64,000 bases of DNA. Source: Spirochaetia bacterium. GTDB lineage: Bacteria > Spirochaetota > Spirochaetia > SZUA-6 > Bin103. Positions 34,436-46,509 of this stretch are shown here, in pieces; position 1 is the stretch's first letter, and each line of letters begins with the position of its first letter. The notes under the pieces are model-generated. The model had not been told where the DNA came from, did no database searches, and saw nothing but the letters and a program-made list of their open reading frames with translations. The translations under genes and the position numbers were made by a program. Location of the stretch: NCBI GenBank assembly GCA_965203905.1, contig CBDBDQ010000005.1:7072001-7136000 (forward strand). Reading direction: 5' to 3'.

Positions 34436-36013
34436 TCACATGCCCCACACGTCGACCGGCACCGCGCCCTGGCCGCGCCGCTGATGCGCCGAGTGGCGCC
34501 GGAGATGGAATACCTTCTCCTCCCAGCTCCGGTTCTCCCGCCGGTCGATGACGACCAGGTGCCCCGCCTCGGCAGCGCAACGATCCACGTACCTTGCCGT
34601 CTGCTCCACGCCCTCGTCCATGACGCTCTCAAGCCCGTTGTACTCGCGGACCACCTTGCACTCCACCACGAACTCCTGCACCCGGCCTGCCAGCGGCCAC
34701 ACGATCAGCAGGTCGACCCGTCCGCTCCCCAGGGCGTACTCCCGCTCGATGCGGCCGCCGCCGTTCACGATCCGCTGCAGGTACGCCTGCAGGAGCAACT
34801 GCGGCCACGCCTCCTCGTACGCGAAGCGGGTCCTCCAATACTGCGAGTTACGGCGGAAGAAGCTCTGAAACTCCTCCATCAGCAAGTCTGCGTCCAAGCT
34901 GCCGTCCGCCCTCATGTACCGTGGCGGTGACAGGTCCAGCGTCTCCTGCGCCGCCCATGCGAGCTCGCGCGGCAGCACCTCGGCGTAGATCGGGTTCGCC
35001 ACCCGCAACGGCGCATCGGGGGCCACCAGCCCCAGGTCGCGTACGTACGAGATATCGCGGTCCGTAAGGGTGTGCCGGTCCGTGCCGCTCAGCATCGGCT
35101 CGATCACCCGTCGCACGCGATCCTCGCGCAGCTTGTCCGCCAGATAATCCAGGTGCGTCACCCGGTTCACGATCAGCTCCTCGCGGGCCGCGGCGATGTC
35201 GTCCGAGGTCACCGTTCGCGAACGGTCTTCGCACAATGCCTTGTTCTCGAAGCAGGCCACGTTCGCCAGCGCGTTCACCAGCCAGGGCTGGCCGCAGGTC
35301 AGCGTCCACACCGCTTCCAGCGCCTCCGGAGCGAACGCCTGGCCCGTGTCCTTGGTGTGCTGATGCAGCAGAGCCAGCGTCTCTTCGTGCGAGAAGTCGC
35401 CCATCCGCAACGACTTCGCTGCGATGTTGAACGGGCTGCCCGCGGCGCCCATCCGGTAATCGCGCGGGTCGCGCATGCCGCACAGGACCACGCTGTGGGG
35501 GAAGCGCGCCGGGCGGCCGGGGTAGCCGGCGCGAAGCTGTTGGAGCACCGAGAGCAGCGAATCACCCACCAGCGTATCGATCTCGTCGATCAGCAGCACC
35601 AGCGGCCGCGGCGACGCCTCGGCCCAATGCTCCAGTGCCACGCTCAACGCCAGGTCCGGCCCGAACTCGGCGAGGGTTGCCGCCCAGATGTCCCGAAGGA
35701 ACCGGTCGCCCAGAGCAGCACTCGCCGCGTTCGCCAGCGCGGCGAGCACCACGCGCATCGCCCGCTGCACGTCGTCACGGGCGGTGCGGGCGGTTTCTAC
35801 CGTAACGTACACGCACCCGTAGTCGCGCTCGTTCAGCAGTTCGGCCAGCGCCAGCAGCGCCGAGGTCTTCCCCGTCTGCCGTGGCGCGTGCAGCACGAAG
35901 TACTTCTTGTCGCGCACCAAGCCGAGCACCGCGCCCAGATCGATCCTCGACAGCGGCGCGATCAGGTAATGATCGATCGGGTTTACGGGGCCGGCGGTGT
36001 TGAACGAACGCAT
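34436..36013 (-). CDS. AAA-like ATPase with a C-terminal PD-(D/E)XK nuclease domain
   Basis: FNTAGP, APRQTGKT, LIDEID and REYALGSGRVDL...VECK motifs. Confidence 0.88.
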   Translation of the reverse strand: MRSFNTAGPVNPIDHYLIAPLSRIDLGAVLGLVRDKKYFVLHAPRQTGKTSALLALAELLNERDYGCVYVTVETARTARDDVQRAMRVVLAALANAASAALGDRFLRDIWAATLAEFGPDLALSVALEHWAEASPRPLVLLIDEIDTLVGDSLLSVLQQLRAGYPGRPARFPHSVVLCGMRDPRDYRMGAAGSPFNIAAKSLRMGDFSHEETLALLHQHTKDTGQAFAPEALEAVWTLTCGQPWLVNALANVACFENKALCEDRSRTVTSDDIAAAREELIVNRVTHLDYLADKLREDRVRRVIEPMLSGTDRHTLTDRDISYVRDLGLVAPDAPLRVANPIYAEVLPRELAWAAQETLDLSPPRYMRADGSLDADLLMEEFQSFFRRNSQYWRTRFAYEEAWPQLLLQAYLQRIVNGGGRIEREYALGSGRVDLLIVWPLAGRVQEFVVECKVVREYNGLESVMDEGVEQTARYVDRCAAEAGHLVVIDRRENRSWEEKVFHLRRHSAHQRRGQGAVPVDVWGM

Positions 36014-36086
36014 TTTTTTTTGGTCCGGCTTCCTGCGAAGGGTATCACAGGCGCATTCCCGACCTGATGTGTCCCAGCCGGCGCGG

Positions 36087-36557
36087 CTACTCGCGGGCGG
36101 GGTGGATCGGATCCACCCAGTCCACCTCTTCCGGTTCCTCTGCCACGGGGATGTCCAGGTTCACCACCACCGGTTCCTGGTCGCTGCGCACCAAGACGCA
36201 CTGCAGCGCCTCCTCGCGGCTGGCGTTGATCTCCTGGTGCGGCACGTAGGGCGGCACGTAGATGAAGTCGCCGGGGCCCGCCTCCGCCACGTACTCCAGG
36301 CGCTCGCCCCAGCGCATGCGCGCCCGGCCGCGCACCACGTAGATCACGCTCTCCAGCGCTCCGTGGTGGTGGGCGCCGGTCTTGGCGTTGGGATGGATCT
36401 CGACCGTGCCCGCCCACAGCTTCTCGGCACCGGCGCTGGCGCGGTTGATCGCCGCCGCCCGCGTCATTCCCGGCGTCTGCGGCGTGTTGAAGTCCAGCCG
36501 CTCGCTCGTTACCACGCGCACGCCGTGCGTACGCCAATTGCGCTCCGCCTCTGCCAT
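36087..36557 (-). CDS. Cupin domain protein
   Basis: TGAHHHGALE and GDFIYVPPYVPHQE motifs. Confidence 0.9.
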   Translation of the reverse strand: MAEAERNWRTHGVRVVTSERLDFNTPQTPGMTRAAAINRASAGAEKLWAGTVEIHPNAKTGAHHHGALESVIYVVRGRARMRWGERLEYVAEAGPGDFIYVPPYVPHQEINASREEALQCVLVRSDQEPVVVNLDIPVAEEPEEVDWVDPIHPARE

Positions 36558-37588
36558 CCGCTGTCCCCGCGCCCATCCTACCCGCCGCGCGCTGCAAGTG
36601 GCGACACCCGCGCTCGGCCGAAGGAGCACGCCTCGGCGTATGGCTGGCGTGGCTGGCGGCGCCGACTTGCGTGGGCGCGGGCGCACGGCTACCATGACCC
36701 ATTGTCGGATCACGGTTCCAAGGAGGGCCCCTATATGCCACGCTCCGTTTCCGCAGTTTCGCTGATCGTCATTCCCCTGCTGATGGCGACCGTCCCGCTG
36801 CTGGCCAGCGGTACCGAGGAAGGCGGCGCAGCCGCCGGCGCCACGGGCGGCGCCAACATGGCCCTCGCCATGATCGACGAAGAGCCGTACATCGACCACA
36901 TCCACGCCAGCCCCGCGGCCTACACCGCCGCCACCGGCACGGCGCTCGACACCTTCTACGAGGCGCCCGTGCTGGCCGCCCTGGTGGCCGAGGGCAAGCT
37001 GCCGCCGGTGGAGGAACGGATCGGCCGTGATCCGCAGGTAATCCGCCCGGCGTTCGAGATCGGGCAGTACGGCGGCATCCTCAACGACGTCGGCAGCGAG
37101 GGAGACGCCGGACAGCTCGTCGAGGAAGGGCAGCAGCCGATGGCCAAGTGGAATCCGCCGGCCAACATCTTCTATCCCAACATCGCCCGCACCTGGGACA
37201 TTTCCGACGACGGGCTGGTGTTCACGCTCAACCTGCGCCACGGCATGAAGTGGTCCGACGGCGAGGATCTCGACGCCGACGACTTCGTGTTCTTCTACGA
37301 GGCGATCCTCGCCAACGAGGAGATCAACGCGGTGACCCCCGAGCCGCGCGGCCGCTACCGGCCCGGCGGCGAACTGATGCAAATACGGGTGCCGGACCGC
37401 TACACCGTCGAGTACACCTTCGCCGCGCCGTACCACAACGCCGCCGAGAGCGGCTGGGCGCGGGGCCGTTCCTTCGCCCCGGAGCACCACCTGAGCAAGT
37501 ACCACCTCGAATACAACGACGAGTAAACATTCGGTCTACCGGTGTGGGACCGCTGGACACATCCGGACCGGTGTGCTACGAATGAGGT

Positions 37589-39214
37589 GTGGGAGGGTTC
37601 TGGCGGAAAACGAGTGGCTGCACGGCGGCGTGCCAGAGCCAGATGGACGAGTTGCGGTGCGAGGTAGTAGAGCTGCGACGACAGGCGCGCTATTACCGCA
37701 GGATGCACGGCAAGGCGGTAGCGCGCGAGCAACGGCTGAAACAGAAACTGCAAGCGGCACGGGCCAAGCTCAAGGAACTGCGCCAGCGCCTGCGGGAACG
37801 CTGGGCACGGCGCCGCGGCAGCGAGAAGCGAACCAGGAGTGGCGGCGCTCCTGAGGCAACCGCCGCGCCACCGCGGCGCCGCGGTCAGCAACCCGGGGCG
37901 CCAAGCCATGGTCGGCGCCGGCACGCACACCTGCCGGTACAGGTTGAAGCACACGACGTTGCCCCGGACCGGCGCCGCTGCGCGGCCTGCGGCGCTGAGT
38001 ATCATTCGCACGGCAGCGAGGATTCCGAGCAGTTGGAAGTCGAGGTGCGCGCCTACCGGCGGGTGATCAAGCGGCGGCGCTACCGCCGCAGCTGCCAGTG
38101 CACGGCGGCCGCGGCGGTGCTCACGGCGCCAGCGCCGCCACGGCTGATCCCGAACGGCATCCTGGGGATCTCGATCTGGGTGACGGTGCTGCTCGACAAG
38201 TATCTGCTGTACCGGCCCACGCATCGGTTGCTCGCGGATCTACGCACGCATGGGCTGGATCTTGCCCAAGGCACCGTCACCGACGGTCTGCGGCGTCTGG
38301 CGCCGTTGTTCGCGCCACTGCGCGAGGCGCTGATCGAACGCAGCCGCACGAGCGAGCACTGGCATGCTGACGAGACCAGCTGGCAGGTGTTCGAGGCGGC
38401 CAGCGAGGACACCTGCCAGCGCTGGTGTCTGTGGCTGTTCTGGAGTGCCGAGGTGGTGGTATTCACGCTCGATCCAACCCGTTCGGCGCGGGTGCCGAAG
38501 CAGCATTTTGCGACCGTGACGGGGGGCGTGGTGAGCGTCGACCGCTTCTCCTCGTACAAGCGGCTGGCCAAGGATACCGAGCTGGAGTTGTCGTTCTGCT
38601 GGGTGCACATGCGCCGCGACTTCATCACGGTAGCCCATGAGCGGGACGATCAGCAGGAGTGGGCCGAGCAGTGGCTGGCTGACATCGCTACGCTGTATCG
38701 CCTGAACGACGAGCGTCTTGAGGTGCGTGGTGAGCCCGCGCAGTACGCGGCGGCCGATGCGGCGTTGCGGGCGGTGGTGCAGGCGATGGAAGAGCGACGA
38801 GAGCGCGAACTGGCGCAGCAGCCGAAGCTGGCGGCAGCGTGTGCGAAGGTGCTGCGCAGCATGCGCAACCACTGGCAGGGGCTGACGCGGTTCGTCGAGG
38901 ATCCCGACTTGCCGCTGGACAATAATCAAGCCGAGCGTGCGCTGCGCGGCCCGGTGGTGGGGCGCAAGAACTACTACGGCTCGGGGGCGCAGTGGAGCGG
39001 TGAGTTGAGCGCGGCGCTGTTCAGCCTGTTCCACACCCTCGAACGATGGCAGATCAACCCGCGTACTTGGCTGACCGAGTACCTGAGCGCCTGTGCGGTC
39101 GCCGGCGCTCGCGTGCCTGAAGACTACGAGCGGTTCCTGCCCTGGCACCGTCCCGAGGCGCGCTTGCTGCCCCGCGGCTCACCCGCCAAGCTGGTCGACG
39201 ACCGTGCCGCCTGA
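37589..39214 (+). CDS. tnpC: IS66 DDE transposase (start codon uncertain)
   Basis: Coiled coil, CAACG zinc finger, HADET, SVDRFSSY, CWVHMRRDF and DNNQAERALR motifs. Confidence 0.93.
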   Translation: MGGFWRKTSGCTAACQSQMDELRCEVVELRRQARYYRRMHGKAVAREQRLKQKLQAARAKLKELRQRLRERWARRRGSEKRTRSGGAPEATAAPPRRRGQQPGAPSHGRRRHAHLPVQVEAHDVAPDRRRCAACGAEYHSHGSEDSEQLEVEVRAYRRVIKRRRYRRSCQCTAAAAVLTAPAPPRLIPNGILGISIWVTVLLDKYLLYRPTHRLLADLRTHGLDLAQGTVTDGLRRLAPLFAPLREALIERSRTSEHWHADETSWQVFEAASEDTCQRWCLWLFWSAEVVVFTLDPTRSARVPKQHFATVTGGVVSVDRFSSYKRLAKDTELELSFCWVHMRRDFITVAHERDDQQEWAEQWLADIATLYRLNDERLEVRGEPAQYAAADAALRAVVQAMEERRERELAQQPKLAAACAKVLRSMRNHWQGLTRFVEDPDLPLDNNQAERALRGPVVGRKNYYGSGAQWSGELSAALFSLFHTLERWQINPRTWLTEYLSACAVAGARVPEDYERFLPWHRPEARLLPRGSPAKLVDDRAA

Positions 39215-40100
39215 GGCGGTGCGCTACTGCGGCCGGCCCTTCAGCGAGCAGGAGCTGCAGTTGATCCGCGCGCTCATCGCTGAGGACCCTACCCGCCATC
39301 GGTTCGCCCTCTCGAAGGTGGTGTGCGAACGGCTGCACTGGCGGCGTGCCAACGGACAACTGAAGGACATGAGCTGTCGCGTCGCGATGCTGCGCATGCA
39401 CCGCGACGGGCTCATCCGGCTGCCGGCGCCGCGGCGGCGTCACTACAACGGCACGCTGCGCCGCCGTCGTACCGCGCAGGCGGAACCGGAGCTGCCGATC
39501 AGCGCCCGCGTCGATGAGCTGCCCGCGCTGCAGGTACGACCGCTGGCCGATCAGCGCGAAGCGCTCCTATGGCGCGAGTACGTGGACCGCTACCACTACC
39601 TTGGCTATACGCCGCTACCGGGTGCGCAGCAGCGCTACTTGGTCACCTGCCAGCGGCAGGTGCTGGCGGTGGTCGGCTTTGGCGCCAGCGCCTGGAAGGC
39701 GGCTCCTCGCGACCGCTTCATCGGCTGGAGCGTTGCCCAGCGCGAAGCGCGGCTGCACCTGGTGGTGAACAACGCCCGCTTCTTGATCCTGCCTTGGGTG
39801 CAGGTGTGCAATCTCGCTTCCACCGTGCTGGCGCGCATCAGCCGCCGGCTGCCCGCCGACTGGCAGGCGCGTTATGGGTACCGACCGCTGCTGCTGGAGA
39901 CCTTCGTGCAGTCCGACCGCTTCGCCGGTACCAGCTACCGCGCCGCCAACTGGACCCACGTCGGACAAACCCAAGGACGCGGCAAACTCGACGTACGTCG
40001 AATGCACACGCTGCCCACCAAAGACATCTGGCTCTACCCGCTCAGGCGCGACTTCCGCCGTCGACTGTGCGCTCCTCTTGATCCGCCCCCCAACCTGTAG
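39204..40100 (+). CDS. DUF4338 (DruA-like, Mom/GNAT-related) protein with an N-terminal helical domain, inside the IS
   Basis: RYCGR, YHYLGY, RDRFIGW, NNARFLILPW, NLAS, LLETFV and GTSYRAANW..VGQTQGRG motifs; its stop codon lies in the right TIR. Confidence 0.85.
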   Translation: MPPEAVRYCGRPFSEQELQLIRALIAEDPTRHRFALSKVVCERLHWRRANGQLKDMSCRVAMLRMHRDGLIRLPAPRRRHYNGTLRRRRTAQAEPELPISARVDELPALQVRPLADQREALLWREYVDRYHYLGYTPLPGAQQRYLVTCQRQVLAVVGFGASAWKAAPRDRFIGWSVAQREARLHLVVNNARFLILPWVQVCNLASTVLARISRRLPADWQARYGYRPLLLETFVQSDRFAGTSYRAANWTHVGQTQGRGKLDVRRMHTLPTKDIWLYPLRRDFRRRLCAPLDPPPNL

Positions 40101-41416
40101 ACCGAATACTTACAACGACGATGCCGCAAGTGTCGCCAAGGAAGAAGGTTACGAGACCTGGATGGACGCGTTCGCGGCCCACCATTCCGACCGCGGACAC
40201 TCCGGCTCGCGGCCGGTGGCGCACCGCTTTCCCGAGCTGCCCACCACTGACACCTGGGTGCTGAAGGAGGCCAAGCCGGGAGTCCGCTTCTGGGGCCGCA
40301 ACCCCTTCTACTGGAAGGTGGACACGGCCGGCAATCAGCTCCCCTACGCCGACGGCGTGCAGGTGCTGGTCGTCGAGAACCCGGCCGACGTGGTGCCGGC
40401 CAAGGCGATGGCCGGCGAGCTCGACTGGCCCAAGAACGAGTTCATGGACATCGCCGACGCACCGGCCTACCGCCGCAACGAGGCCTCGGGAGGCTACCGC
40501 ACCCATCTCTGGCCCAGCTATGGCGGCGCCTTCGCCTTCGGCGTGGTGCTCAACTACACCAACAAGGATCCGGTCAAGCGCGAGCTGTTCAACGACCTGC
40601 GCTTCCGCCAGGCGCTGTCGCTGTCGATCAACCGCCAGGAGATCAGCGACAAGCTGTACTTCGGCGAGTCGGTCCCCTGGGTGGCCCCGGTCAGTCCCAC
40701 CTGGACCGGGTTCGAGGACTGGATGGCGACCCACTATGCCGAGTACGACGTGGACCGCGCCAACGCGCTGCTGGACGAGATCGGGCTGGCCTGGGACGCC
40801 GACCGCACCTGGCGCGTGCAGTCGGACGGCAAGCCGCTGGCCATCGACGGCAGCTACAGCAGCAACCTGCAGACCACCGCCGACGCCATGGAGCTGCTGT
40901 CCCGCTACTGGGCGGCGATCGGGGTGCGGATGGAACCGAAGTTCGTGCAGGGCGAGCTGTGGACGGAACGCGGCTTCGCCAACCTGTGGGACGCCGGCTT
41001 CGGCGGTCACGGGACTCCCGAGGCGGTGGCGCGTGCCGACTACCCGCTGAACCTGATCCCGCCGTGGCACTACTACCACTGCTGTCCCAAGTCCTCCTAC
41101 CCGTGGGGCACCTGGTACCACACGTTCGGCGAGCAGGGCGAGGTGCCGCCGCCGGAGATCCAGCGGCTGTTCGAGCTTGCCGATGAGTGGGCGAAGACGA
41201 AGCCGGGCACCCAGGAGTATCACGACACGGTCAATGAGCTGATCAGGTTGAACGTGGAGAACCTGTACGCGATCGGCACCGTGTCGACGCCGCCGACGCC
41301 GATGATCGTGAACAACCGGGTGGGCAACGTGCCGGGTGAGATCGGCTACCTGCTGATGAGCCAGGTGGAGACCTACAACATCGATACGATCTACATAAAG
41401 AGCTGATGATCCTTCG

Positions 41417-42471: not shown

Positions 42472-43580
42472 GTGAAAAAACTACGACGTCTCGCGCCAAA
42501 GAAGAGTCCTACTACCTCGCCTCCCAGTGGCAGCTCATGTGGCGCAAGTTCCGGCGCCACCACCTGGCCCTGGTCGGCGGCGTGATCCTCGGGCTGCTGT
42601 ACCTGGCGGCGCTGGGGGCCGACTTCATCGCGCCCTACGACCCCAACGAGCTGTACGAGCACATCCATCACCCGCCGTCGCGGATCCGCTTCCTGCACGA
42701 GGGACGGCTGGTGGGGCCGTTCGTGTACGGAGTCACCGAGACGTTCGACCGGGAAGCGTACCAGTCGGTGTATACCGTGGATCGCAGCGTCCGCTACCGG
42801 GTGCGGCTGTTCGTTCGCGGCGCCCCGTACCGGTTTGCCGGTCTGCTACCGTCGCGGCTCCACCTGCTCGGAGCGGAAGATCCCGGACGGGTGTTTCTGT
42901 TCGGTACCGATACGCTCGGCCGCGACCTCTTCTCGCGCACCGTCCACGCCTCCCGCATCTCGCTCTCCATCGGGCTGGTAGGCGTGGCGCTGAGCTTCGT
43001 GATCGGAACCGCGCTTGGTGGCCTGTCCGGCTACTACGGCGGCCGCGTCGACACCTTCGTCCAGCGCTGTATCGAGTTCCTCATCTCCCTGCCCACCATT
43101 CCGCTGTGGATGGCGCTGGCCGCCGCGCTGCCGGCGGAGTGGAACGTGCTCCAGATCTACTTCGGCATCGTCATCATCCTGTCGCTGGTAAGCTGGGGCG
43201 GGCTGGCGCGCGTGGTGCGCGGCAAGCTGCTGGAGCTGCGCGAGCACGACTTCGTGATGGCGGCCCAGATCGGCGGCATGCGGGAGCTGACCATCATCCG
43301 CCGCCACCTGCTGCCCTCGTTCGCCAGCTACCTGATCGTGCACCTCACCCTGGCGATCCCGCGCATGATCCTGGCCGAGACCGCGCTCAGCTTCCTCGGC
43401 CTGGGTTTGCGTTCGCCGGCGCTGAGCTGGGGCGTGCTGCTGCAACGGGCGCAGAACTTCCGCAGCGTGGCCATCTACCCCTGGCTGCTGATCCCCGCCG
43501 CCTTCGTGATCATCACCGTGATGGCCTTCAACTTCGTAGGCGACGGCCTGCGCGACGCCGCCGACCCCTACAAGCAGTAA
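42468..43580 (+). CDS. Dpp/Opp permease C
   Basis: GTDTLGRD, ETALSFLGLG and GDGLRDAADP motifs. Confidence 0.92.
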   Translation: MSEKTTTSRAKEESYYLASQWQLMWRKFRRHHLALVGGVILGLLYLAALGADFIAPYDPNELYEHIHHPPSRIRFLHEGRLVGPFVYGVTETFDREAYQSVYTVDRSVRYRVRLFVRGAPYRFAGLLPSRLHLLGAEDPGRVFLFGTDTLGRDLFSRTVHASRISLSIGLVGVALSFVIGTALGGLSGYYGGRVDTFVQRCIEFLISLPTIPLWMALAAALPAEWNVLQIYFGIVIILSLVSWGGLARVVRGKLLELREHDFVMAAQIGGMRELTIIRRHLLPSFASYLIVHLTLAIPRMILAETALSFLGLGLRSPALSWGVLLQRAQNFRSVAIYPWLLIPAAFVIITVMAFNFVGDGLRDAADPYKQ

Positions 43581-43682
43581 TCTCCCGGCCGCGCTCCCGG
43601 CACCGAGCAGCGGTTCCGAGGGCTCCGAGTCACCTGATTCGCCCGCCCCGCGGTTGCGCGTATAATTCGGTTGGACCCTGCC

Positions 43683-44663
43683 ATGCCCACGCGCGCTCCC
43701 CGAAATCGTACCGTCTCATGCACCGAAGCGGATCGCGAGCGACTGGCACACCACGTCCTGCGGCTGGGTGGCTCCGTCTCCTGCCGCGATCTTGCCGGCC
43801 ATGTTGTCGCCGGCGACTTCTTTACCGTGGCGAAACACTTCCCCTCTGCCTTCGTCGACCTGCTCATCCTGGATCCGCCATACAATATTTCCAAGGACTT
43901 CAATGGCAGCGCCTTCCGGAAAAAACCGGCAGATGAATACCGCCGTTGGTTTCAGGATCTCATCGATCTTCTCATGCCGATGATGAAACCGAACGCGACG
44001 CTGTACGTGTGTTCGGACTGGAGCACATCGACACTGATCTTCCCCGTCCTGAACGCGGCATTTCAGGTCCGGAATCGAATCACCTGGGAACGGGACAAGG
44101 GTCGAGGCGCGAAGACGAACTGGAAGAACAACGCCGAGGACATCTGGTTCTGCACCAGGTCGGACGAGTATTACTTCAACGTGGAGGCGGTGAAGCTGAA
44201 GCGCAGGGTGCTCGCACCCTACCGCGCGCACGGGACGCCGAAGGACTGGTCCGAAGAGTCCAATGGCAAGTTCCGCCTGACCCATCCGTCGAACATCTGG
44301 ACCGACATCACCGTCCCGTTCTGGTCGATGTCGGAAAACACCGACCATCCGGCTCAGAAGCCGGAAAAACTGATCGCGAAGCTGACTCTGGCGAGCTCGA
44401 GACCGGGCGACTGGGTATTCGATCCTTTTCTCGGCAGCGGCACCACCGCGGTCGTTGCGGAAAAGCTCTCACGCCGTTGGTGCGGCGTCGAGATCGATGC
44501 CGAATACCAGTGTCTGGCACTCAAGCGGCTCGCCGCGGCCAGGACCGATCGGTCGATCCAGGGTTACGCTGACGGCGTGTTCTGGGAACGCAACGCTTTT
44601 TCCGGCCGCACGCGGAGGGCCGAACATGACAGCGCAAGCGGACAATCGGATCTGTTCGCATGA
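43683..44663 (+). CDS. DNA amino-methyltransferase (N6-A/N4-C, beta class)
   Basis: DPPY precedes HPAQKP and DPFLGSGTT; TATAAT at 43661. Confidence 0.92.
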   Translation: MPTRAPRNRTVSCTEADRERLAHHVLRLGGSVSCRDLAGHVVAGDFFTVAKHFPSAFVDLLILDPPYNISKDFNGSAFRKKPADEYRRWFQDLIDLLMPMMKPNATLYVCSDWSTSTLIFPVLNAAFQVRNRITWERDKGRGAKTNWKNNAEDIWFCTRSDEYYFNVEAVKLKRRVLAPYRAHGTPKDWSEESNGKFRLTHPSNIWTDITVPFWSMSENTDHPAQKPEKLIAKLTLASSRPGDWVFDPFLGSGTTAVVAEKLSRRWCGVEIDAEYQCLALKRLAAARTDRSIQGYADGVFWERNAFSGRTRRAEHDSASGQSDLFA

Positions 44664-45723: not shown

Positions 45724-46509
45724 TCACGTGAGCTGCATGCCGGATGAGCCTCTAATTGTGGCTGTAATCTTTGCACGCCGGGGCGAAATGACCTCATCAA
45801 AGATCTCCTGAACGAAAGGCGCAACCCAATATTGAGAATCAGGTGCCGGCTGTACTCCACATTCGAGGGCATCGGTATAGTCACTAGACATCATATAGTG
45901 ATCCTTCAAGAAAAAGACGTACCCAAGGTGCATAACAAGGAGATCTTGTGCATCGGCTCTGAACGTGTCTATCCACGGCATTCGAGTCGGAAGACTAACT
46001 TCGTTGTCATTAACCAATACATGGTGATAGAATTTGTAGTGTGTATGGGCATTGCAGCGATCTCGTATAGATCTGTACCGATTTTCAGATAGTAGAATGG
46101 TTATCGGTTTGGCCATCTGTGCATTGGTGATGTACTTGCGCATTGTTTCATATTGTGGCAACTGTGCTTTGCCGGCCAACCATTTTTGAATTTTTTTTAC
46201 GATGAAGTTCTGAGTGCTGAAATGCTCGGCCAGGTAGAGCTTGGTGTAAATGTCGATAACAGCCGAATCGTAGTATTTTCTAAGTAGACAATATGCATCG
46301 TTGATCCGTCCCGACAGAAGAATAGCTTGGATAGATTCAAGTGTGCCATGCATGGAGCTGTACGTGTAGCTATCAATATTCTCTATTGATTTGACTCCCA
46401 TAGTTGGGAAGCGAAATACGGACATTGTCAGACTTTTGTAGAAGGAGATATTTCGCGCGAGGTCTGCGAATACGCTATGGGACTGGTATGCCTCGCTATT
46501 TACTTGCAT
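45724..46509 (-). CDS. Low-GC hypothetical protein, possibly HEPN-like
   Basis: 261-aa ORF with DAYCLLRKYYDS and RDRCNAHTH; promoter TTGACA-N17-TAGACT at 46647-46619. Confidence 0.65.
   Translation of the reverse strand: MQVNSEAYQSHSVFADLARNISFYKSLTMSVFRFPTMGVKSIENIDSYTYSSMHGTLESIQAILLSGRINDAYCLLRKYYDSAVIDIYTKLYLAEHFSTQNFIVKKIQKWLAGKAQLPQYETMRKYITNAQMAKPITILLSENRYRSIRDRCNAHTHYKFYHHVLVNDNEVSLPTRMPWIDTFRADAQDLLVMHLGYVFFLKDHYMMSSDYTDALECGVQPAPDSQYWVAPFVQEIFDEVISPRRAKITATIRGSSGMQLT

Follow-up and report, generated by a model that had tools for sequence, protein, structure and literature searches.

Insertion sequences are thought to require little beyond a transposase. In classical IS66 elements the transposase gene, tnpC, is preceded by two further genes (tnpA-tnpB-tnpC), whereas elements of the ISBst12 group have tnpC as their only gene; IS66 accessory genes are poorly understood. 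The locus described here raises the question of what a gene for a DUF4338 protein is doing inside an element of this family. The element occupies positions 37523–40113 (2591 bp) of a 64,000-nt stretch of DNA from a Spirochaetia bacterium (GenBank assembly GCA_965203905.1, contig CBDBDQ010000005.1, positions 7,072,001–7,136,000), hereafter referred to as the window. It consists of inverted ends and of two open reading frames (ORFs) on the same strand, tnpC and the DUF4338 gene, that fill its interior. The DUF4338 gene was found to belong to the element rather than to be a cargo, and its product is probably (we would put the odds at about three in four) a dedicated accessory module that acts in cis with the transposase. 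The IS66 family itself is known; a widespread accessory module of this kind in an IS66-family element appears to be new.

The element, its two genes and its copies

The left terminal inverted repeat (37523–37548, plus strand), which starts with GTAAAC and was identical in all six copies of the element present in the genome, is paired with a right repeat (40088–40113, minus strand) that ends in CTTAC. Each is 26 nt long. Repeat finding showed the two arms to be 81% complementary over these 26 nt, that is, to form an imperfect repeat; direct reading showed the outer 17 nt of the ends to start with GTAA and to match at 15 of the 17 positions. A first-pass annotation, made from the letters alone, had described 17-bp repeats starting with GTAA. 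An 8-bp target-site duplication, AACGACGA, could be read directly in the sequence on the left (37515–37522) and on the right (40114–40121) of the element. The tnpC gene (37589–39214, plus strand; alternative start ATG 37643) codes for a DDE transposase of 541 aa that matched PF03050 (E 9.9e-60) and the profile NF033517, ‘IS66 family transposase’ (296 bits, against a cut-off of 180). Terminal inverted repeats starting with GTAA and an 8-bp target duplication are hallmarks of the IS66 family, and the element combines a DDE TnpC, GTAA ends and an 8-bp duplication in six of six copies. The left repeat and tnpC are separated by 40 nt, and neither tnpA nor tnpB is present inside the element.

The DUF4338 gene (39204–40100, plus strand) follows tnpC. 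Its product, of 298 aa, matched PF14236 (‘DruA’ or ‘DruA-like’, formerly DUF4338) at E 7.1e-48, with 163.7 bits against a cut-off of 27. The ORF is open from position 39093, that is, 111 nt upstream of the GTG at 39204; the latter is the likely start codon because a 298-aa relative with 91% identity aligns residues 1–297 to residues 1–297. A paralogue borne by an ISKra4-family element of the same genome (see below) also aligns from this GTG onward. Starting there, the DUF4338 gene overlaps the tnpC stop codon (39212–39214) by 11 nt, an overlap retained in the related loci L025–L030, and its own TAG stop codon (40098–40100) falls within the right inverted repeat. Judged from the sequence, tnpC and the DUF4338 gene are predicted to be translationally coupled. 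Comparison with the orthologues in locus L025 gave a ratio of non-synonymous to synonymous substitution rates (dN/dS) of 0.23 for tnpC and of 0.15 for the DUF4338 gene, which is under purifying selection. A scan of positions 37450–40200 found no sigma-70 promoters and no terminators.

The genome (7.99 Mb, five contigs) contains six full-length copies of the element. They are 100% identical, and each is flanked by its own perfect 8-bp duplication (TGCCTTCC, AACGACGA, TCACGGTC, TCTCGGAG, AACGCAGC and GATCCGCA), which excludes chance as an explanation of the element. When the whole genome was scanned for either 26-nt end, allowing up to four mismatches, the 12 ends of these six copies were the only ones returned, so that miniature and solo-end derivatives are absent from the genome. 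A second genome, record OZ253572.1, also contains six copies, 88–89% identical to the element, whose homology is limited exactly by the inverted repeats; five of these six have perfect 8-bp duplications. The copy in the window split a single gene coding for a family-5 solute-binding protein, since the translation of 36600–37523 matched positions 3–87 of the SBP_bac_5 profile and the right flank matched positions 114–348. The 5′ part of the interrupted gene (35997–37526, plus strand, as listed among the ORFs) ends at a TAA built partly from the first bases of the element; in the 3′ part (40114–41406, plus strand) the reading frame continues across the duplication. Positions 37523–40113 of the window are an intact, recently active IS66-family insertion sequence, and its two genes were shown to transpose together, the inverted repeats marking the limits of the unit. 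The first-pass annotation had likewise reported the perfect duplication, an intact tnpC and an overlapping second ORF ending inside the right repeat, and had read the locus as an IS66 element that lacks tnpA and tnpB and carries the DUF4338 gene as an integral part; the profile matches, the ends and the six identical copies with their duplications bear this out.

Contigs from RNA libraries also contain sequences of the element. One of them, from a relative, joins position 37511 to position 40111 and thus corresponds to an empty site. A 151-nt contig was identical to positions 39810–39960, although contigs of this kind cannot prove transcription. Most of the RNA-library contigs were assigned to relatives because they are 90–95% alike to the element. 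Nine of the runs listed were recorded as RNA, and every row recorded or guessed as RNA that held sequence words of the element held at most 9% of them.

The element resembles those of the ISBst12 type in having an IS66 DDE transposase, GTAA ends and an 8-bp duplication, and in lacking tnpA and tnpB. It differs from them in that the single gene that defines the group is here joined by a second conserved gene, of 298 aa, which lies between the repeats, overlaps tnpC and ends inside the right repeat; further, in many relatives of the element the DUF4338 module is fused to the transposase in a protein of ∼810 aa. With classical IS66 elements it shares the transposase family, the kind of ends, the duplication and the coupling of accessory gene(s) to the transposase gene, but the accessory is unrelated: one gene for a protein of the GNAT fold downstream of tnpC, as opposed to tnpA and tnpB upstream of it. 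The only classical IS66 copy of the genome is a remnant (C5:1281102–1282746) in which a TnpB_IS66 match lies beside a tnpC gene with an internal TAG; that match (C5:1282567–1282746), the single one in the genome, lies outside all six copies of the element. The sole classical IS66 of this genome therefore has a broken tnpC, in contrast with the six intact DUF4338-bearing copies. Two more IS66-type transposase genes, at C5:670683 and C5:7178301, had no DUF4338 match nearby.

DUF4338 modules beside and within transposases

A search of the same genome for PF14236 returned eleven places: the six copies of the IS66-family element and five copies of a different one. This second element, of ∼2.93 kb, belongs to the ISKra4 family and has ends starting with GGGTGCGG. 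Its copies were found at C5:1283700–1286800 (locus L024) and near C5:5006073, 5379660, 5620375 and 7646932; among the four copies evaluated, three had perfect 9-bp duplications and one an imperfect duplication (six of nine positions). Its DUF4338 gene codes for a protein of 301 aa (PF14236, 157 bits), 43% identical to that of the window, and directly precedes a gene for a 537-aa ISKra4-family transposase (353 bits, against a cut-off of 205). Two unrelated insertion sequences of one genome are thus equipped with the same accessory gene. One copy of the ISKra4-family element directly adjoins the classical IS66 remnant mentioned above. In another (L108, C5:5380329–5382963), the DUF4338 gene is broken by a single-copy insertion of ∼2.6 kb that encodes an IS3-like transposase with HTH_21 and rve domains and gave no Rfam match. 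Four ISKra4 elements carrying genes of unknown function, which the available part of the text leaves unnamed, have been reported by Guerillot et al. 2014 (PMC3942029). As far as that part goes, the element found here resembles them in its GGG ends, its 9-bp duplication and the presence of an extra gene; it differs in that the extra gene could be identified as DUF4338, and is common to IS66 and other families.

The association extends well beyond this genome. Among 8000 candidates scored, at least 7999 were relatives of the DUF4338 protein, the 120 that were listed all carried PF14236, and the family comprised 9615 cluster representatives at E ≤ 0.001. Related loci were collected in a scan of one genome per species, in which 120 of 197 candidate stretches were confirmed and 80 loci, from many phyla, were kept; their neighbouring genes were inspected by tblastn with representative transposases, and transposase families were assigned by NCBIfam or Pfam. 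In 62 of the 80 loci, a transposase gene on the same strand directly adjoined the DUF4338 match. The transposase was of the IS66 family and located upstream in 30 loci, of the ISKra4 family and located downstream in 20, and of the DDE_Tnp_1 type and located upstream in seven; an IS4 neighbour was found in three loci, an IS701-like one in a single locus and an upstream ISKra4 fragment in another. No transposase neighbour was detected in the remaining 18. The pairing of tnpC with a DUF4338 gene, pointed out by the first-pass annotation in one copy, is therefore recurrent, as seen both in the 30 loci with an IS66 neighbour and in the six copies of record OZ253572.1; the number of copies in the genome under study, which that annotation had suggested counting, proved to be six, 100% identical.

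Some loci showed additional arrangements. In L035 and in L055, a pair of DUF4338 matches lay only a few kb apart. Both matches of L035 are accompanied by a DDE_Tnp_1-type transposase of their own, an arrangement suggestive of tandem or nested copies. In L074, the gene that follows the DUF4338 gene codes for a ResIII/DEAD-box helicase (L074:6215–7696) and not for a transposase; members of the same clade may here stand in a defence-type context.

The DUF4338 module also occurs as a part of transposases. The ten long family representatives that were scanned were all transposase fusions, with IS66 (three), IS4 (six) and IS630 (one) transposases; the module was C-terminal in the three IS66 fusions and N-terminal in the six IS4 fusions and the IS630 fusion. 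A search directed to longer proteins yielded 2077 at E ≤ 0.001 among 4866 candidates. Of the best 120 of these, 118 carried PF03050 and PF14236 in one protein, typically of ∼810 aa, and one had Tn5-type domains; the last, with IstB and DnaA domains and 91% identity, looks like the read-through product of an adjacent gene. In the IS66 fusions one module directly follows the other (residues 11–520 and 528–809 in P0436, for example), so that the two genes of the window correspond, in split form, to what is commonly one protein. A +1 shift within 39093–39214 would yield a TnpC-DUF4338 fusion resembling these natural proteins of ∼810 aa. As a side possibility, the element of the window may additionally produce such a fusion, because no stop codon interrupts the DUF4338 frame in the 111 nt that precede the GTG, and the natural fusions join just there. 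In a plasmid collection, two of 72,556 records matched DUF4338; in one of them the GNAT part lay inside a coding sequence annotated as ‘ISAs1 family transposase’. Public records name the separate proteins ‘DUF4338 domain-containing protein’ or ‘hypothetical protein’, and the fusions ‘IS66 family transposase’.

Fold of the DUF4338 protein and its likeness to Mom

An AlphaFold2 model of the DUF4338 protein, built from a 57-sequence alignment, had a predicted local distance difference test score (pLDDT) of 94.2 and a predicted template modelling score (pTM) of 0.87. It comprises a small N-terminal domain (residues 1 to ∼75; 39204–39428), made of a beta-hairpin and three helices, a linker, and a C-terminal alpha/beta domain (residues ∼99–290; 39498–40073). 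A Foldseek comparison with the Protein Data Bank (PDB) gave 178 matches at E ≤ 0.001, and the 37 that were shown all corresponded to GNAT-type acyltransferases or members of the GNAT superfamily. On the basis of the model, a GNAT fold can be assigned to the C-terminal domain with confidence; the available part of a previous report (PMC10853773) also terms the DUF4338 domain GNAT. In the ranking of PDB matches SpeG came first (E 1.5e-5), RimI second and the Mom protein of phage Mu (8bv8_B) third (E 2.2e-5). Mom, with 17% identity, had the highest query TM-score (0.42), at rank 3 of at least 500 PDB matches. Among viral models (BFVD), which gave 54 matches at E ≤ 0.001, a Mom was seventh. The only PHROG match of the protein was to ‘Mom-like DNA modification protein’ (E 7e-4, residues 234–263), and it covers the GTSYRAANW stretch. 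These structure matches, the PHROG match and the conserved residues described below are what delimit the C-terminal domain as Mom-like.

According to the part of PMC13219725 that was available, Mom transfers glycine from Gly-tRNA(Gly) to the N6 of adenine in double-stranded DNA, by means of an active site formed by H58, Y59, R111, S124, D149, R151 and Y159. Residue numbers there are higher by ten than those of the 231-aa record, an offset with which the invariant columns of a Mom alignment agree. In a profile alignment, the DUF4338 protein was identical to Mom at five of these seven positions. H131 faces H58 and is a histidine in 57 of 57 relatives; Y132 faces Y59 (tyrosine in 46 of 57), S206 faces S124 (serine in 55), R239 faces R151 (arginine in 45) and Y245 faces Y159 (tyrosine in 55). 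The DUF4338 protein thus combines the GNAT fold with an active-site pattern like that of Mom, but it falls outside the Mom family: a Pfam scan at E ≤ 0.01 returned PF14236 alone, with no match to PF25680 (Mom). When the PDB was searched by sequence with the profile of the DUF4338 family, nothing was returned at E ≤ 10. The two proteins also differ in that the DUF4338 protein has an extra N-terminal domain, and in that Mom is encoded by phages, the DUF4338 protein by insertion sequences.

GNAT enzymes bind the pyrophosphate of acetyl-CoA through a motif, Q/R-x-x-G-x-G/A, located after strand 4. On inspection, which is all that this comparison involved, no such glycine motif was seen at the matching place of the DUF4338 family, whose consensus is V-x-N-L-A-S, with no glycine. 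Its absence would be consistent with an enzyme that, like Mom, uses a different co-substrate from acetyl-CoA. The N-terminal domain, modelled separately (pLDDT 78.2), had no PDB match at E ≤ 0.001, and an Atlas feature search gave no usable match. In 17 of 51 relatives the winged-helix domain of PaaX was matched, below threshold (best E 0.013); that this domain might be a DNA-binding winged helix is a guess drawn from sequence.

Possible roles of the DUF4338 module

The DUF4338 module is read as acting in cis with the transposase mainly because of the fusions, which involve several transposase families and place the module at either end. An alternative accessory factor was one of the roles put forward in the first-pass annotation, and the recurrence and the transposase fusions support it strongly. 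Acting in this way, the protein would work in or next to the transposition complex, replacing the role of TnpA and TnpB in classical IS66 elements. Its N-terminal domain might guide it to the ends of the element or to the target DNA. If it is an active transferase, it would acylate or aminoacylate nucleic acid, as Mom does, rather than acetylate it with acetyl-CoA, and the resulting chemical mark could control when or where the element moves. A Mom-like transferase activity of the protein, by which it would mark nucleic acid at the ends or at the target, is a possibility that we regard as tentative. The fuller version, in which the module would be a transposase-tethered nucleic-acid modifier of the Mom type, possibly dependent on aminoacyl-tRNA, that marks the transposon ends or the target during transposition, is more doubtful still.

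Several observations weigh against these proposals. The 80 loci were selected by their likeness to a protein borne by an insertion sequence, which biases the sample to such contexts and means that the association is overstated for PF14236 as a whole. The BLAST test found no adjacent same-strand transposase in 18 of these loci, and in some of them the DUF4338 gene lies beside unrelated genes: among nine neighbours scanned, one was an IS66 transposase gene on the opposite strand, four had no Pfam match, and four were unrelated, coding for a helicase, a thioredoxin-like protein, a membrane-fusion protein and an ion channel. The domain also occurs in defence settings, a fusion of DUF4338 to DndF being described in the part of PMC10853773 consulted. 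As for the likeness to Mom, generic GNATs such as SpeG and RimI match the fold just as well, and the link at sequence level is weak: hhalign against a 38-sequence Mom alignment gave a co-linear match over 151 columns with a probability of 9.1% (E 0.0036). Mom R111 faces a gap and has no aligned partner, the invariant R192 lying five residues upstream, and D149 is replaced by Q236 (D or E in 50 of 57 relatives, Q in four). An essential helix-turn-helix-like insertion of Mom (residues ∼175–209, according to the section of PMC13219725 at hand) faces gaps in the DUF4338 profile and has no counterpart. What DUF4338 and Mom (PF25680; 8bv8) have in common is thus the GNAT fold, a top-ranking structural score, the co-linear alignment and five identical residues; the family match, the insertion and a partner for R111 are missing. 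The Mom/GNAT likeness claimed in the first-pass annotation therefore holds as a resemblance (GNAT fold, Mom at rank 3, the PHROG match, and aligned HY and GTxYxAxN motifs) and fails as membership of the Mom family, given the hhalign probability of 9%.

The DUF4338 protein could have other functions. The first-pass annotation had also considered anti-restriction. With the gene as a passenger, Mom-like modification of DNA in trans would safeguard either the element or the replicon of the host in the course of horizontal transfer, and the insertion sequence would merely be the vehicle. The likeness to Mom in fold and motifs speaks for this, as does the fact that Mom shields DNA from restriction (PMC13219725, in the portion seen), and a gene for an N6/N4 DNA methylase (PF01555, E 8.8e-41) lies at 43671–44660, 3.5 kb downstream of the window copy. 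That annotation had taken the methylase gene for one half of a type II restriction-modification pair. The methylase was confirmed, but no partner nuclease was identified, the nearby ORFs 42527–43933 and 45727–46509 having no Pfam match, and a functional link to the element found no support: the methylase was rejected as a partner, its proximity being coincidental, since the other five copies have different flanks. An enzyme acting in trans would not be expected to be fused in frame to at least three transposase families, the elements are minimal in size and carry nothing else, and the insertion essential to Mom is missing; an anti-restriction cargo is accordingly not favoured, and we consider it unlikely. 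A regulatory role is more plausible than that, if improbable. The protein might be an acyltransferase acting on the transposase or on a host factor, or a catalytically silent module sensing a small molecule or charged tRNA, and in either form would gate transposition. Most of the GNATs of closest fold (RimI, RimL, SpeG) act on proteins or small amines, fusion to a transposase suits a cis-acting regulator as well as it suits a modifier of DNA, and in a third of cases the N-terminal domain shows a weak likeness to PaaX, a repressor that senses acyl-CoA. The conserved residues, however, are those of the Mom active site and not a generic pattern, and the glycine motif that usually binds acetyl-CoA was not seen on inspection.

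The name of PF14236 in Pfam, ‘Druantia protein DruA’, suggests instead a phage-defence protein of Druantia type I riding on insertion sequences. Beyond this common family, little else agrees with such a role. PADLOC DruA models matched the DUF4338 protein at 16–18 bits (E ∼1e-3) over some 50 residues (PDLC00002, for example, at 16.3 bits, E 0.001, over residues 141–188), and their lengths are 407 and 675, compared with 298 aa here. No druB–druE operon is present, the element having two genes and its six copies unrelated flanks with no neighbours in common; further, transposases neighbour most of the related loci. The DUF4338 protein thus appears, by sequence, to be far from true Druantia DruA, and a defence role of this type is very improbable. 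It is even harder to credit that the protein is a GNAT toxin of the TacT/AtaT kind, acting on charged tRNA and stabilising the element by addiction. GNAT toxins do act on aminoacyl-tRNA (PMC13219725, same portion), and Mom binds charged tRNA too, but the element has no antitoxin-sized gene, six intact copies coexist in one genome, and fusion to transposases does not fit a toxin. A dedicated accessory module acting in cis with the transposase remains the best explanation of the data.

No paper linking DUF4338 or DruA to transposases was found in the searchable literature, although an ISfinder entry with such a gene is possible. In the preprint 10.1101/2025.09.15.676423, ‘DruA’ occurs solely within the word Druantia, and the parts of PMC13639185 and PMC13463889 that were accessible contain no link between DUF4338 and transposases. 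What the present element offers is a gene with an enzyme fold and conserved Mom-like catalytic residues as an obligate partner of a transposase, and often as a domain of one, in a pairing that spans IS66, ISKra4, IS4, IS701, IS630 and ISAs1-type elements of many phyla and a family with thousands of members. Modification of DNA or of the transposase by the module would amount to a new layer of transposition control. The module might then also serve as a tool, being a DNA-targeted transferase, and would offer a hypothesis that can be tested for DruA, the uncharacterised product of the first Druantia type I gene. Should it prove to be a Mom-type modifier tethered to the transposase, it would provide the first example of a transposition machine with its own DNA hypermodification, a module that at least six transposase families would have recruited independently, and the same chemistry would account for what DruA does in Druantia type I defence.

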